53,957 nucleotides of DNA from Candidatus Binatia bacterium (GTDB taxonomy: Bacteria > Desulfobacterota > Binatia > UBA9968). Position 1 is the first letter of the stretch, and every line of letters begins with the position of its first letter. The stretch covers positions 1 through 53,957 of the forward strand of contig DASTOD010000023.1 of the NCBI GenBank assembly GCA_035762645.1. Reading direction: 5' to 3'. Under the pieces are notes generated by a model. That model ran no database searches and was not told the origin of the DNA. It saw nothing but the letters and a program-made list of their open reading frames with translations. Shown here in pieces: positions 39,155 through 44,939 of the stretch. The translations under genes were made by a program, and so were the position numbers.

Positions 39155-39200
39155 ACGGTTCTTTGTTGTTGTTTTGGATCATTCCCGGCGGGAGGGTGCC

Positions 39201-40991
39201 ATGGGAAAAATCGATCTTTCAATTGGAATCGGCGGCGCCGCGGGGCAGGGGATCGCCACTCCGGGCGATATTTTGGCGCGTATCTTCGTGCGCCGCGGCC
39301 TGCATCTGAATGCCTACAACGCCTACCAGTCGATCATTCGCGGCGGGCACATCTTCCTGACGCTCAGGACCGGCGACGAACCGGTTCTTAGCTTCGGCGA
39401 TAAGTTGGATGTCCTCATTCCGCTAAATCAAGACACCATGAATCGCCATCTCCGGCTCATGGGAGACGGTTCGGCAGTGCTTTATAACAGCGATAAGATC
39501 AAGCCGGGAACCACGGCTGACGGCGTCCAGCTCTGCCCGTTTTCCGTTAAAGAGCTCGCGCCCGCGATCAAGGGCGATCTGGTGCAAAATACGATTGCTT
39601 TGGCGGCGGTGCTGCGACTCATCGGCGTTGAGTTCAAGGTGTTGGAAGAAATTCTGACACTGCAGTTCAAAAGAAAAGGACAGGCGGTCGTCGCCGAAAA
39701 CGTCGGTGTGGCGCGCGCGGGCTATGACTACGCCGCCGGGCATTTCAAGCCGTTTCCTTTTTCTCTCCCCAATACGGGCAAGCCGTTGGGGTTTTTCGAG
39801 GGAAACCAGGCTCTGGCGATGGGCGGGGCCGCAGCCGGCGTCCGTTTCTATTGCGCTTACCCGATGAGCCCGTCTTCCGGCGTGCTTCACTGGATGGCGC
39901 GGCATGCCCGACAACTGGGTATTATGGTGCGGCAAGTCGAGGACGAACTTGGAGTCATCAACATGGCCATTGGCGCCGCGCACACGGGCTGCCGCGCGAT
40001 GTGCGCTACTTCCGGCGGGGGCTTTGCGCTGATGAGCGAGGCTCTCGGCTCCGCGGCTATGATGGAGATTCCGGTAGTATGCATCAATGTTCAACGCGCC
40101 GGCCCGGCCACCGGAGTGCCGACCAAGACGGAACAGGGCGATCTCTGGCAAGTCATGGGCGCCGGCCAGGGAGATTATCCCCGAATCATCGTCGCGCCGA
40201 CCAACATAGTCGACTGTTTCGAAACTGTGCCACAGCTTTTCAATCTGGTGGATAATTTCCAGTGTCCGGGGATTATCCTCACGGATCTCTTACTCTCGGA
40301 AGGTCGCTCCAGTGTAGATCCCGCCGATTTGAATTTTAACGTCCCCATCGACCGGGGCGAGATCATCGGGCTCAACGGAAAGGCTCCTCCCGTCAACGGT
40401 GGCTACCAGCGCTTCCGCGTCACCGAGAGCGGCATTTCCCCGCGCGCGCTTCCGGGGACTCCGGGTTACGCCCACGTGGTGGCCACCGACGAGCACGACG
40501 AAGAGGGAGTGCTGATCAGCGACGAATTTACCGATCCTCACAAGCGCCAGGCGATGCATGAGAAGCGCATGCGCAAGATGGAAGCGATCCTCCCTCAGCT
40601 GGATCCGCCGCGGCTCTTCGGGCCGCCTGACGCTGCGGTCACGTTTGTCGGCTGGGGCTCAACCGAGGGAGTCATCCGCGAGGGAATGCAAAAACTCGCA
40701 AGCCAGGAAGGCATCGTCGCGAACCATCTCCAGATCAAATGGCTCGTGCCGCTGCACGCCGACGCGATCACGGCGCTCCTTTCCAGCGCCAAAAAACTCG
40801 TCATTGTGGAGAATAATTATAGCGGTCAGTTTGCTCGCTATCTCAGATCGGAGACCAGCATTGTGGCGGACGGTCATATTCGAAAATACGACGGCGAGCC
40901 GTTCATGCCGCACCATATCGTCGACGGCGTTAAAGCGATTTTGGCCGGCAGCACGCAGAACTACGTGCCGGTTCACGAAATCATGGTTTAA
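39201..40991 (+). CDS. korA: 2-oxoacid:ferredoxin oxidoreductase, alpha subunit (gamma-alpha fusion)
   Basis: The N-terminal gamma-type domain is IGIGGAAGQGIATPGDILARIF...YQSIIRGGH. The alpha domain is FYCAYPMSPSSGVLHWMA...VEDELGVINMAIGAAHTGCRAM. A GGGAGG SD precedes the ATG at 39201. Confidence 0.9.
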   Translation: MGKIDLSIGIGGAAGQGIATPGDILARIFVRRGLHLNAYNAYQSIIRGGHIFLTLRTGDEPVLSFGDKLDVLIPLNQDTMNRHLRLMGDGSAVLYNSDKIKPGTTADGVQLCPFSVKELAPAIKGDLVQNTIALAAVLRLIGVEFKVLEEILTLQFKRKGQAVVAENVGVARAGYDYAAGHFKPFPFSLPNTGKPLGFFEGNQALAMGGAAAGVRFYCAYPMSPSSGVLHWMARHARQLGIMVRQVEDELGVINMAIGAAHTGCRAMCATSGGGFALMSEALGSAAMMEIPVVCINVQRAGPATGVPTKTEQGDLWQVMGAGQGDYPRIIVAPTNIVDCFETVPQLFNLVDNFQCPGIILTDLLLSEGRSSVDPADLNFNVPIDRGEIIGLNGKAPPVNGGYQRFRVTESGISPRALPGTPGYAHVVATDEHDEEGVLISDEFTDPHKRQAMHEKRMRKMEAILPQLDPPRLFGPPDAAVTFVGWGSTEGVIREGMQKLASQEGIVANHLQIKWLVPLHADAITALLSSAKKLVIVENNYSGQFARYLRSETSIVADGHIRKYDGEPFMPHHIVDGVKAILAGSTQNYVPVHEIMV

Positions 40992-41001
40992 GGAGAGCGC
41001 T

Positions 41002-41940
41002 ATGAGTATACCGATGGCTAAAACAGAACTTAAAACGCGGGGCCCGGGCGGGCCGCGACCCGAGCGCGGCAAGCTCACCATCAAGGACTTCAAGGGCAAG
41101 AGCGAACCCGACTGGTGCCCCGGCTGCGGCGACTTCGGCGTGTTGAGCGCCTTGAAGCAAGCGATCGCAGAGTTGGGTCTTTACCCGCACGAGGTGATGG
41201 TCATTAGCGGGATCGGCTGCTCCTCAAACCTCCCCGGCTATATCAATACGTACGGCATGCACACACTGCACGGCCGCGCGCTCGCCGTCGCCACGGGAGC
41301 GCAGCTTGCGAACCATACACTCAAGGTCATTGCCACGGGCGGCGACGGCGATGGCTACGGAATCGGCGGGAACCACTTCGTCCACTCGATGCGGCGCAAT
41401 GTGGATCTCACCTACATCGTAATGGACAACCAGATCTACGGGCTGACCACGGGTCAGATCTCGCCCACGAGTCTCAAGGACATGAAAACGAAAAGCACGC
41501 CTTTCGGTAGCGTGGAAAATCCCATCAATCCTATACCGCTAGCGATCGCCGCGGGAGCGACCTATGTAGCGCGCGGGTATACGGGGCAGGTGAAGCATCT
41601 GGTGGATTTGATCAAGGGCGGCATTCAACATAAGGGCTTTGCTTTGATCGATGCCTTCAGCCCATGCGTGACCTACAACCATGATAACAGCCACGAGTTT
41701 TTCAAGCAGAGGACCAAGAAGCTGGAGGAGATAGGCCACGATCCGACGGATTTTGGCGCGGCTATGAAGCAGGGTTATATGTGGGGCGAGGTGATTCCCA
41801 TCGGTCTTTTCTGGAAACGTGAGGATCTGCCGAGCCTCGATCAGCTGGAGCCGGTCCTCGAGGAAGGCGGTCCTCTTTCCCATCGCTCCCTCGGCGTGCC
41901 TCCGGAGACCGCCCAAGCGCTCATCAGGGAACTGATGTAG
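41002..41940 (+). CDS. korB: 2-oxoacid:ferredoxin oxidoreductase, beta subunit (TPP-binding)
   Basis: It contains DWCPGCGDFGVLSAL, ...GGDGDGYGIGGNH... (TPP motif) and ...YIVMDNQIYGLTTGQ. An AAGGAG SD precedes the ATG at 41002. The track ORF 40558..41940 is an out-of-context upstream extension overlapping korA. Confidence 0.9.
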   Translation: MSIPMAKTELKTRGPGGPRPERGKLTIKDFKGKSEPDWCPGCGDFGVLSALKQAIAELGLYPHEVMVISGIGCSSNLPGYINTYGMHTLHGRALAVATGAQLANHTLKVIATGGDGDGYGIGGNHFVHSMRRNVDLTYIVMDNQIYGLTTGQISPTSLKDMKTKSTPFGSVENPINPIPLAIAAGATYVARGYTGQVKHLVDLIKGGIQHKGFALIDAFSPCVTYNHDNSHEFFKQRTKKLEEIGHDPTDFGAAMKQGYMWGEVIPIGLFWKREDLPSLDQLEPVLEEGGPLSHRSLGVPPETAQALIRELM

Positions 41941-42249: not shown

Positions 42250-43599
42250 ATGAGCGCAGCGATCATTACCAACGCTCTGATCATTCCGATGACCGAGGAG
42301 CGGAAGTCGTTCAACGGATTCGTCCGTTTCAGGGACGGCCTCATTACGGAGGTGAGCACGGGCTCGCCGCGAGAATGGATCCAGTCGGAACAGATAATCG
42401 ACGCTAGGGGGTTCGTTCTGATGCCCGGTCTGGTCAACGCCCACACGCACCTCTACCAAGTCTTGCTGCGCGCGGTGTGGGAGGATCTACCGCTCATGGC
42501 CTGGCTCAAGAGCATTTACGGCGCGGCCCAAGTTCTTCGGCCCGAGCATTTCTACGCCGGAAGTTTGCTCGGCTGCGCTGAGGCGATTCAAAGCGGCGTG
42601 ACGACCGTTTGCGAGCACAATTTTCTCAATCCTCACCCGGACTGCGCATCTGAAACGATTCGCGCCATCAGCGAATCAGGGCTCCGCGCCGTGTTTGCGC
42701 GAACAGTGATGGACGCCGGTGAAATCGTGCCGGACTGCGTCAAAGAAAGACCGGAACAAGCATTCCGTCATGTCGAGGACCTCCTTACCGCCAACGGCGG
42801 AAACGATCGGCTTGCTATCATGACGGGTCCCAATACCCCGCCGCTGAACACGACTCCGGCGCTGCTGAAGGAGATCCGGCGCTTTGCCGAGGAGAGATCG
42901 CTCGGCATCAGCGCCCACGTCGCGGAATCGAAATCAGTGGTAGAGTTCACTCGGGAGAAGCACGGCAAATCAGGCGTTGTCGAATTTCTCGACGACTACG
43001 GCATTCCCGGTCCGGCTGCGCTATTTGCGCACTGCGTCCACGTGTCGGATTCTGAGATCGGTATTCTCAAAGAACGCGGCGCGTCCGTGTCGCACAACCC
43101 GGTCAGCAACATGATGTTGGGTGACGGGGTCGCGCCGGTCATCGAAATGCTTAGACGGGGAGTGAACGTCGCCCTGGGTACGGACGGCGCGGCCAGCAAC
43201 CACTCGCAGGATCTTTTTGAAACCATGAAATGCGCCTCTCTGCTGCAAAAAGTTCACCATCAGGACGCGAGCGTTATAGACCCCTATACGGTGTTGCGCA
43301 TGGCGACCGGTGGCGGAGCGAGCGCTCTGGGTCTATCGGCCTGCGGAACGATCGAGGTAGACAAAAAAGCGGATCTGATTCTGATTAATCTGGAGAGGAT
43401 CCATGATCAGCCGGTCAATGACACCTTCAGCCAGCTGGTGCATTGCGCCAAAGCGAGCGACGTCGAGACCGTCATCGTAGACGGCGAGATCGTGATGAAA
43501 CAAAGACAGCTGCTGCGCTTGAACGAAGTACAAATCCTTGAGCAAGCCAAAAGAGCAAACATCGACCTCATGGAGCGGCTGCGGCCGCTCTCGTTCTAA
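42250..43599 (+). CDS. Amidohydrolase of the TRZ/ATZ-MtaD/SsnA deaminase-chlorohydrolase group
   Basis: The metal-binding motif is LMPGLVNAHTHLYQ. Also present are ...ISAHVAES..., FAHCVHVSDSEI and ...ALGTDGAASN... Confidence 0.85.
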   Translation: MSAAIITNALIIPMTEERKSFNGFVRFRDGLITEVSTGSPREWIQSEQIIDARGFVLMPGLVNAHTHLYQVLLRAVWEDLPLMAWLKSIYGAAQVLRPEHFYAGSLLGCAEAIQSGVTTVCEHNFLNPHPDCASETIRAISESGLRAVFARTVMDAGEIVPDCVKERPEQAFRHVEDLLTANGGNDRLAIMTGPNTPPLNTTPALLKEIRRFAEERSLGISAHVAESKSVVEFTREKHGKSGVVEFLDDYGIPGPAALFAHCVHVSDSEIGILKERGASVSHNPVSNMMLGDGVAPVIEMLRRGVNVALGTDGAASNHSQDLFETMKCASLLQKVHHQDASVIDPYTVLRMATGGGASALGLSACGTIEVDKKADLILINLERIHDQPVNDTFSQLVHCAKASDVETVIVDGEIVMKQRQLLRLNEVQILEQAKRANIDLMERLRPLSF

Positions 43600-43617
43600 G
43601 ATCGAGCAATTTGTCCT

Positions 43618-44232
43618 TCACGGGCTTTCTTGTTGCGACGCTGATTTCCCTGCGTGCTGCACCAGCCGTTCCAGCTCGCCATAGGGCTGGGCGCCGACCA
43701 TGAGATAGCGGCCGGCAAGGAAGGTCGGCACGGCGTGGACCCCGATAGCGGCGCACCGTCGCCAGTCTTCATCGACCGCCTTCTCATAGGTCCGGCTCCG
43801 TAAGACATCAGTTGCTTCGTCCGCGGGCAATCCCACGTCCGCCGCAATCTGGCTGAGGACTTCTGTCTTACCGATATTCTTGGCGTCGACGAAATAGGCG
43901 CGGAAAAGGGCGTCGTTCATCGGTTGCGCCTTGCCGTGCGATTCGGCCCATTTCGCCAGCTCTTGCGCGAGCCGGCTGTTGTACGACATGTTGCGCTCGA
44001 CATTGTAGGGCAATCCCTCGCGATCCATATTCATCTTCATCTGCTGATTCCGAGCGGCATATTCCGGTCCGCGCTCGTTGCCTTCTTCCGGAGTTTCCGG
44101 ATGGAGAGGAAAATGCGTGAACTTGATCGCGAGATCGTAGTTGGCTTTGAGTTTCTCGACACGCCCGGTGACGAGATAGCACCACGGTCAAACGAAATCG
44201 GAAAAAACTTCAAGAACGAGCGGTTCCGCCAT
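43618..44232 (-). CDS. DsbA/FrnE-like thiol:disulfide oxidoreductase with an in-frame TGA (44190..44188) at the first Cys of CxxC; probable selenoprotein (U-P-W-C)
   Basis: A GGGAGG SD lies 5 nt upstream of ATG 44232. The frame reads MAEPLVLEVFSDFV-TGA-PWCYLVTGRVEKLKANYDLAIKF... and continues in the same frame into track ORF 43618..44040. A SECIS-like hairpin starts 11 nt after the TGA. Confidence 0.7.
44154..44176 (-). promoter_or_regulatory. Candidate bacterial SECIS hairpin
   Basis: The mRNA sequence UCUCG-U-CAC-CGGGC-GUG-U-CGAGA gives 5+3 bp, a U.U mismatch and a G-containing 5-nt apical loop. Its first nucleotide lies 11 nt after the UGA. Confidence 0.5.
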
Positions 44233-44304
44233 GATAGCCTCCCATTGTGGCTCTGCTGCTTAGATTCTACGTTTCCGGTTCGCAGAAAGTCAAAGGGGAG
44301 GACT

Positions 44305-44398
44305 CTTGGCTTATGGCGTATGGCTTATAGCTTATAGTTAAATCCCAATTCAAAATACCAGAAACGTGGAATGGCATAAGCTATCAGCTATATGCCAT
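44305..44398. repeat. TATGGC/ATAGC-word hairpin, with the right arm overlapping the DUF488 stop region
   Basis: cttggcttatggcgtatggcttatagcttatag (44305-37) faces atggcataagctatcagctatatgccat (44371-98). Confidence 0.65.
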
Positions 44399-44939
44399 TA
44401 GTGACTGGATAGAAAATCTTCTTCCCTTTCGGGCGGGCAAAGGGCGGCAACCGATGCGCATGACAGCCGTCGTCCAAAATATGGCGCGCCGGGAAGCCGC
44501 GAACAAGAAGGGCATCGGCCAGGAGCTGGCGATGACAACGCCATGGAACGGCTTCCGCGCACATGATCGCGAGTCGCTTGTTCTCGGCGAGCGCTTCCAT
44601 CTCCTTCATGATGGCATCGAATTCCGGCGTGAGCATGAAATCAGCGTAGCCACGAAACGCTCCTACCTTCCACGCTCCATTCGGCGAATCGCGCCCGGGT
44701 TGGCGGAATCCGCCGAGGTCGCCGCGCCAGATGTAATCGATGCCGCGACTCTCCACCAACGCGGCCAACGCCTCGCGGCGAAACTGCGAATGGCGTTTTG
44801 ATACGGGCCAGCGCCGCACATCGACAAGCAGCTCGATTGTATGCGCTGCCAGTAAATTCATGAAGGCGTCGATTGGGCGCGTGGAATGGCCGATGGTATG
44901 CACAGCTCGTGGCGAATCGCAGCTCATGATGATCAACAT
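44388..44939 (-). CDS. DUF488 family protein
   Basis: It contains VHTIGHSTRPIDAFMNLLAAHTIELLVDVRRWPVSKRHSQFRREAL...LAIMCAEAVPWRCHRQLLAD, the conserved DUF488 pattern. Confidence 0.8.
   Translation of the reverse strand: MLIIMSCDSPRAVHTIGHSTRPIDAFMNLLAAHTIELLVDVRRWPVSKRHSQFRREALAALVESRGIDYIWRGDLGGFRQPGRDSPNGAWKVGAFRGYADFMLTPEFDAIMKEMEALAENKRLAIMCAEAVPWRCHRQLLADALLVRGFPARHILDDGCHAHRLPPFARPKGKKIFYPVTNGI

Follow-up and report, generated by a model that had tools for sequence, protein, structure and literature searches.

A DsbA-like protein (COG2761, UxxC motif, 9 sequences) with a predicted selenocysteine insertion sequence (SECIS) was described as a new selenoprotein family in the 2005 Sargasso Sea study (PMC1088965), and in 2006 a DsbA-like selenoprotein was found in the genomes of Anaeromyxobacter dehalogenans, Desulfovibrio desulfuricans and Desulfotomaculum reducens (PMC1794560). 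A 2026 review lists the entry as "DsbA-like protein form 1, PF01323, UxxC" (PMC13188914), and AACY01178397 and NIP15863.1 are published representatives of the family. Here we report a gene of this type, in which an in-frame TGA very probably encodes selenocysteine (Sec), on the minus strand of a 53,957-nt contig of a Candidatus Binatia bacterium (GenBank assembly GCA_035762645.1, contig DASTOD010000023.1). The whole of this stretch is called the window, and all coordinates are those of the window.

A further point of comparison is FrnE of Deinococcus radiodurans (DR_0659, PDB 5cnw), a cytoplasmic disulfide reductase/isomerase with a role in cadmium, diamide and oxidative-stress tolerance (PMC8945050). 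A C-terminal CxxxxC occurs in many, but not all, FrnE proteins and is optional for the subfamily; the tail without CxxxxC of our gene product and of its TGA-carrying orthologues (hereafter the Sec clade) resembles that of the FrnE proteins of S. roseofulvus and D. maricopensis (PMC8945050). The window protein shares with D. radiodurans FrnE an N-terminal CP(W/F)C-type site without signal peptide, the inserted helical domain and the cis-Pro loop (V-P-T/F). With its active site at residues 15-18 it has the N-terminal CP(W/F)C and the predicted cytoplasmic DsbA fold by which the FrnE (cd03024-type) subfamily is defined. However, similarity over the FrnE-aligned region is modest, and D. radiodurans FrnE carries Cys instead of Sec and regenerates its active site by means of a CxxxxC tail (residues 239-244) that is missing in the window protein.

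For the RNA signal, the reference is the SECIS of Escherichia coli fdhF, reportedly (Huttenhofer et al., 1996; Liu et al., 1998) a hairpin inside the coding sequence (CDS) 3' of the UGA, with its stem base 11 nt on, a G followed by G/U in a small loop some 20 nt from the UGA, and a mid-stem position that is not Watson-Crick paired. The hairpin in the window is alike in the 11-nt distance to the stem base and in the loop G and G/U about 20 nt from the UGA, whereas its mid-stem irregularity is a symmetric U.U, or G.U in most of the Sec clade, and that of fdhF is said to be a bulged U. There is no sequence similarity between fdhF and our putative SECIS, the loop of which reads CG(G/U)GC.

The DsbA-like selenoprotein family and the gene described here have in common PF01323, a UxxC motif with N-terminal Sec, widespread Cys homologues, and a SECIS stem-loop predicted just past the UGA, the small apical loop of which bears a G. 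The family was first found in marine plankton, whereas the loci compared here stem mostly from JGI metagenomes and deltaproteobacterial-type metagenome-assembled genomes (MAGs). Judged by Pfam/COG type and motif, the window gene is a new member of this known family; the find is correct but not new, as the exchange of Cys for Sec at the nucleophilic site of thioredoxin-fold oxidoreductases, decoded by way of an in-frame SECIS hairpin, has been on record in this family since 2005, or for about 20 years. It is conceivable, though in our opinion rather doubtful, that the Sec clade is a distinct and very abundant FrnE-type selenoprotein subclade, without a catalogue entry of its own, of environmental metagenomes and MAGs of deltaproteobacterial type, with Sec fixed in every orthologue examined, without CxxxxC tail and with a rigid SECIS of its own. 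Were this so, essentially all public annotations, including those of NCBI, would be shortened because no family model flags the gene, and a dedicated model would mend records in the hundreds to thousands and provide a convenient marker by which Sec use could be followed in these lineages.

A TGA codon at the first cysteine position of the active site

By direct reading and translation of the minus strand, a frame of 204 codons runs from ATG 44232..44230 to the stop at 43620..43618 with a single in-frame TGA (44190..44188). It reads MAEPLVLEVFSDFV-TGA-PWCYLVTGRVEKLK... and continues without a shift into a 140-aa open reading frame (ORF) at 43618..44040. An earlier note, made from the letters of this DNA alone, had given this ATG with a GGGAGG 5 nt upstream, the frame, the TGA and the 140-aa ORF, all of which are found at the positions it named. 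GGAGG-like purine runs lie 5' of the ATG in most of the 9 loci viewed upstream. Against a true start further downstream, which the note had raised as a possibility that would undo its claim, the N-terminal 14 residues are conserved and the ATG stands exactly 14 codons 5' of the TGA in 81 of 83 loci. Over the 12 codons 5' of the TGA, the minor-allele frequency is 0.45 at third positions versus 0.17 at first and 0.08 at second positions; by this pattern of substitution, the codons upstream of the TGA evolve as coding sequence, under purifying selection.

For a Pfam search of the read-through protein, Cys was put in place of the TGA residue. DSBA (PF01323) matches residues 7-190 over profile positions 2-189 of 191 (E=2e-35; 122.8 bits, cut-off 25.6); with the 140-aa ORF alone, the match is limited to profile positions 69-189 (E=7.9e-19). 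Because the match spans the TGA end to end, the stretch upstream of it is homologous to the N-terminus of the family and not spurious. The closest solved structure is that of D. radiodurans FrnE (5cnw, E=3.5e-20, residues 3-183), followed by the Streptomyces putative DsbA SCO1869 (3gl5). In the HMMER alignment, DIWSDIACPWCY of FrnE stands against EVFSDFV[U]PWCY of the window, and the CPWC of both FrnE and SCO1869 falls on U-P-W-C (...SDIACPWCY... of 5cnw and 3gl5 aligned with ...SDFV[TGA]PWCY...). The stretch upstream of the TGA and the PWC thus match Cys-containing relatives in the alignment to DsbA/FrnE homologues that the note had proposed.

We compared this codon across relatives found by pattern scans of reference genomes and metagenomes. 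The reference-genome scan gave 80 loci: two close ones with TGA, namely L001, an uncultured Syntrophobacteraceae MAG (77% scan identity), and L002, a Deltaproteobacteria MAG (81%), and 78 others (<=49% scan identity) with TGC or TGT, labelled Terriglobia, Acidobacteriota, Desulfarculia, Gammaproteobacteria, Myxococcota, Chloroflexota, Actinomycetes and others. The metagenome scan returned at least 600 matches, of which 80 loci at 50-80% scan identity were kept; every one has TGA, in the context SD[FY]V*PWCYL. In the combined alignment, TGA occupies the codon in 84/84 orthologous loci (52-80% identical to the window protein) and TGC/TGT in 78/78 more distant homologues (29-50% identical). Orthologues with TGA in other organisms amount to 83 further loci, including both MAGs, and most of the Sec-clade loci are found on Ga-prefixed contigs of JGI metagenomes and in MAGs of deltaproteobacterial type. 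The clean Sec/Cys split at about 50% identity is not to be over-read as proof of a single origin, since the scan patterns are biased: the genome query, DFVCPWCY, favours Cys forms and the metagenome patterns were taken from the Sec clade. The standard diagnostic of a selenoprotein is a Sec/Cys pair at a redox-active site (PMC1088965). The placing of the TGA at the nucleophilic Cys of a CxxC motif, as first proposed from the sequence of the window, is borne out by the 5cnw alignment together with the 78/78 and 84/84 codon counts. Moreover, TGA is the stop codon of seven of the 31 Pfam-supported ORFs in the window (this gene and six others), so UGA is an ordinary stop here and the UGA at residue 15 would be the only one recoded.

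As the conserved start leaves 14 residues before Sec, there is no room for a signal peptide, and the protein would therefore be cytoplasmic, like FrnE. When the last 40 residues were searched for C-x4-C, no C-terminal CxxxxC was found in any Sec-clade protein (0/84), nor in any of the 78 Cys homologues examined. Cys160 was considered as a resolving cysteine and rejected. It is invariant among the closest relatives only: 52 of the 84 orthologues keep it, and in the other 32 its place is taken by Ser (30) or Ala (2), so it is not essential.

The hairpin downstream of the TGA

Starting 11 nt past the UGA, the mRNA can fold as UCUCG-U-CAC-[CGGGC]-GUG-U-CGAGA (Table 1). This is the minimum-energy fold: the 23-mer reaches -9.1 kcal/mol, a 31-mer -9.9, and the mean of the Sec clade is -8.4. 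Among the 51 unique Sec-clade sequences, the spacer between UGA and stem has five sequence variants, which differ at third codon positions only. With the U of UGA numbered 0, the stem arms lie at +14..+22 and +28..+36 and the loop at +23..+27. The conserved core consists of the inner 7 positions (44174..44168 with 44162..44156), of which 6/7 pairs are formed in 100% of the unique sequences; the two outermost stem pairs are formed in only 49% and 69%.

RNAalifold independently predicted the same stem. Five combinations of pairs +18/+32 and +20/+30 occur (GC/CG, AU/UA, UA/UA, AU/CG and GC/UA), which indicates several independent compensatory events. In a covariation test, 86.5% of cells were paired with 45 double-sided changes, a number matched by 0/500 shuffles, and register slides gave 0-4. 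The Cys homologues have 4.3/9 stem positions paired versus 7.8/9 in the Sec clade (Mann-Whitney P=2e-6), and in the closest of them (L003-L007) the hairpin is not folded. Resampling of synonymous codons with window codon usage gave P=0.0024 for the window type, 0.0001 for the Ser/Ile type and 0.005 for the Cys/Ile type (types as defined below). Because the hairpin is conserved in 84 loci, covaries, is absent from the Cys homologues and has P=0.0024 in the resampling, we consider it to be more than a product of chance; the single-sequence fold does not enter into this argument.

The published model of the bacterial SECIS (bSECIS) has a loop of 3-9 nt, an upper stem of 4-16 bp, a UGA-loop spacing of 16-37 nt, at least one G at loop positions 1-2, in most cases with G/U next to it on the 3' side, and a free energy of the most stable fold (MFE) no higher than -7.5 kcal/mol (PMC13188914 Fig. 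2A). The window hairpin, at -9.1 kcal/mol, has a 5-nt loop and 8 bp with one U.U mismatch, and elsewhere in the clade there are 7-9 continuous bp. The UGA-loop spacing is 20 nt (11-nt spacer plus 9-nt arm) and invariant in the 51 unique sequences, and the loops are CGGGC (33), CGUGC (17) and GGUGC (1), all with G at position 2 followed by G/U. The SECIS-like hairpin claimed in the earlier note is thus exact in position, shows compensatory changes and lies within all published bSECIS constraints; the note's proposed check against a SECIS model turned out well for these constraints and failed for the Rfam covariance families, none of which matched.

Table 1. Features of the putative selenoprotein gene and pairing in the core of its hairpin (pair positions counted from the U of UGA as 0)
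Feature	Position	Strand	Remark
Predicted complete CDS of DsbA/FrnE-like selenoprotein	43618..44232	-	204 codons + TGA stop; Sec = residue 15; motif U15-P-W-C18
Shine-Dalgarno GGGAGG	44238..44243	-	direct reading; spacer to ATG 5 nt
Putative Sec-encoding UGA, at first (nucleophilic) Cys of CPWC	44188..44190	-	TGA/Cys-codon comparison across loci
Spacer from UGA to stem base, 11 nt (CCGUGGUGCUA; Pro-Trp-Cys-Tyr codons)	44177..44187	-	same length in 51/51 unique sequences
Predicted bacterial SECIS hairpin	44154..44176	-	5' arm 44176..44168, loop CGGGC 44167..44163, 3' arm 44162..44154
140-aa fragment from Met65, standard gene-caller product, without active site	43618..44040	-	ORF list
Terminator TGA of the gene, no SECIS 3' of it	43618..43620	-	sequence and translation
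Pair +16/+34	+16/+34		invariant (51 unique Sec-clade sequences)
Pair +17/+33	+17/+33		invariant (51 unique Sec-clade sequences)
Pair +18/+32	+18/+32		A-U 29, G-C 20, U-A 2; no mismatches
Pair +19/+31	+19/+31		G.U 31, U.U 19, C.U 1
Pair +20/+30	+20/+30		U-A 28, C-G 23; no mismatches
Pair +21/+29	+21/+29		invariant (51 unique Sec-clade sequences)
Pair +22/+28	+22/+28		invariant (51 unique Sec-clade sequences)

Residues 20 and 24 track the stem (44168-44176 and 44154-44162): they are Val(GUC)/Val(GUC) in the clade of the window, Ser(AGU)/Ile(AUU) in a larger clade and Cys(UGU)/Ile(AUA) in loci L138 and L148. Since they co-substitute with the stem pairs, the putative SECIS appears to constrain protein evolution. 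The G/U change in the loop corresponds to Gly22/Val22.

In a competing hairpin, which cannot form together with the SECIS, the Pro-Trp codons are paired with those for Thr-Gly (ACC-GGG; alignment columns 11-17 with 27-33, in the window 44186..44180 with 44170..44164). It was rejected, as it has no covariation (498/500 shuffles score at least as high) and one of its pairs is broken in 30/51 sequences. It is the RNAfold single-sequence MFE structure in many orthologues, those with a CCC Pro codon, and forms poorly in the window, where the Pro codon is CCG; in some relatives it could compete with the SECIS.

Proposed selenocysteine decoding and alternative explanations

From the comparisons above, we hold with high confidence that the locus is a genuine gene for a Sec-containing DsbA/FrnE-like oxidoreductase with a functional SECIS. 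In such a scheme, the UGA at 44190..44188 would be decoded by Sec-tRNA(Sec) brought by the elongation factor SelB, which would be tethered by the mRNA hairpin at 44176..44154 (loop CGGGC, 20 nt from the UGA), while the terminal UGA, without hairpin, would lead to termination. By analogy with FrnE, the Sec15 selenolate would attack a substrate disulfide and Cys18 would resolve the mixed selenenylsulfide, after which the intramolecular Se-S bond would be re-reduced by a cellular reductant. The route of this re-reduction would have to differ from that in D. radiodurans FrnE, since our gene product has no CxxxxC tail at its C-terminus. SelB-dependent decoding, the cytoplasmic location, this catalytic chemistry and the physiological substrate are what we infer here, and the finding would imply a Sec-decoding trait in the source organism, probably a bacterium of deltaproteobacterial type related to the Syntrophobacteraceae MAG.

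Several observations weigh against Sec at this position. Pfam scans of 40 ORFs of the 54-kb window found no selA, selB or selD, and on the contigs of two relatives (446 kb and 643 kb) no sel genes lie within 10 kb of the gene. ARAGORN found no tRNA, and so no tRNA-Sec, in the window, and none in 49 related loci. A script for in-frame TGA codons in a redox-type context returned no convincing second selenoprotein gene in the window. The evidence is sequence-based throughout. Many compensatory cells in the stem are clade-inherited, which leaves perhaps four or five events, not 45, and the fold energy of the window hairpin, taken as a single sequence, is only weakly better than that of shuffles and not significant (z = -0.85 to -2.15). 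No SECIS family of Rfam was matched at the gathering threshold on the whole window or at E<=10 on 44080-44260, where the single match was a spurious miRNA (E=8.7). Regarding the host, the gene order DUF488, dsbA(Sec), convergent amidohydrolase is common to the window and the Syntrophobacteraceae MAG locus L001, and Deltaproteobacteria are the most selenoprotein-rich bacteria, with 31 selenoprotein genes in Syntrophobacter fumaroxidans (PMC1794560); a Sec-decoding host is therefore plausible.

The alternative that survives best, although we consider it very improbable, is that the UGA is read through without Sec, either by a near-cognate tRNA that puts in Cys or Trp at a low level or not at all, the Met65-initiated C-terminal fragment being the functional product, with the hairpin as a by-product of conserved codons or as a generic stimulator of read-through or pausing. 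The Sec machinery not found in the window, the downstream start chosen by gene callers and the competing hairpin, as single-sequence MFE structure of many orthologues, would all fit this explanation. On the other hand, the hairpin agrees with the bSECIS model in the size of its loop, the G therein and the spacing to the UGA, and its covariation exceeds what the amino acids require, while the competing hairpin is without covariation by the shuffle test given above. Pfam profile positions 1-68, which take in strand beta1, the helix of the active site and the CxxC, would be missing from a C-terminal fragment; this does not agree with the conservation of the N-terminal 14 residues, and the pairing of Sec with Cys at the redox site, the diagnostic already cited, argues for Sec as well.

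Practically no weight is given to a reassigned code, with UGA read as an amino acid (Trp under table 4, Gly under table 25) and hence Trp or Gly as the residue. This explanation draws on database entry P0001 (locus L081, JGI metagenome 3300086519), which covers the full query, reads FSDFVWPWCY and includes 51 residues upstream of the real ATG. However, the DNA of L081 has TGA at this codon and table 11 does not yield the database protein; the W stems from the code, one with TGA=Trp, that the gene caller applied to the contig, and is an annotation artefact. Reassignment is also at odds with TGA as the stop of 7/31 Pfam-supported window ORFs, this gene included, and with the distant homologues, which all have Cys and never Trp or Gly at the site; with W-P-W-C, the CxxC redox centre would be lost. 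The G+C content of the window is about 57%, which to our knowledge is unlike the known code-4 or code-25 lineages. There is a negligible chance that the TGA arose by a mistake in sequencing or assembly or by recent nonsense mutation, the locus being a pseudogene of an ordinary Cys DsbA/FrnE gene: the window is one sequence with its TGA called from the assembly alone and TGC/TGT to TGA takes a single base change, but the same codon is TGA in 84 independent loci at 52-80% identity from many metagenomes and MAGs, by which this explanation is already refuted, and the upstream codons are under purifying selection with the ATG kept at codon -14, and a covarying hairpin follows 3' of the TGA.

Database annotation and genomic neighbourhood

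If, as we hold, the TGA encodes Sec, the gene is systematically shortened in databases, and the main value of the present analysis lies in annotation correction. In a search of about 5.8 billion proteins, the best 120 matches had 66-95% identity, and 118 of these 120 are proteins of 136-176 aa with assorted ATG, GTG or TTG starts just past the TGA position. Two of them, P0022 and P0045 (91-95% identical), are annotated exactly as the Met65-start 140-aa fragment. The expectation that gene callers keep the C-terminal half and that the locus is mis-annotated has thus come true for nearly all of its closest database relatives. NCBI labels a 170-aa fragment "DsbA family protein", and NCBIfam has no specific model, its only match being a weak, sub-threshold one to NF041057, another seleno-lipoprotein family (37 bits versus a cut-off of 190). 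The well-supported alignment of the predicted SECIS, with its 51 unique sequences and compensatory changes, could serve as the starting point of a covariance model or of a selenoprotein rule in NCBIfam. It is also of interest that a reading from the sequence alone correctly recognised a selenoprotein gene.

Another of the database proteins, P0007 (207 aa, JGI, 932-nt contig), has an N-terminus, MVVQTTETHQEVPVRTLGPIIHNPQ..., that is unrelated to the leader MxEPLxLExFSD[FY]VU and joins the family only at VEKLKK; it probably reflects a frameshift or a chimeric short contig.

Neighbouring genes were compared in loci L001, L082, L089, L102, L124, L162 and L163. In the window (region 42250-44939) and in 5 related loci, the gene directly upstream, on the same strand, is a DUF488 gene. 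Downstream, a 449-aa amidohydrolase is encoded convergently both in the window and in L001 (77% identical), and in L162 and L163 it lies close to the gene. Among the relatives, the long contigs are rich in NMT1-type substrate-binding proteins.

Upstream of the gene, the intergenic segment 44233-44400 overlaps the 3' end of DUF488 and contains two tandem 14-nt units, TGGCTTATRGCKTA (44307-44334), next to several long inverted repeats that interleave: 44313-44335 with 44376-44398 (23 nt, 87% complementary), 44264-44279 with 44357-44372 (16 nt, 88%) and 44370-44378 with 44391-44399 (9 nt, perfect). These repeats could be a DUF488 terminator, a structured leader or a small repeat element. Elsewhere in the window, the ORF for the beta subunit of a 2-oxoacid:ferredoxin oxidoreductase (40558-41940, plus strand, 460 aa) overlaps the alpha ORF (39174-40991, plus strand) by about 430 nt, with a Pfam match from residue 219 only; the real start of the beta subunit probably lies much further downstream, as an ordinary case of over-extension in an ORF list.

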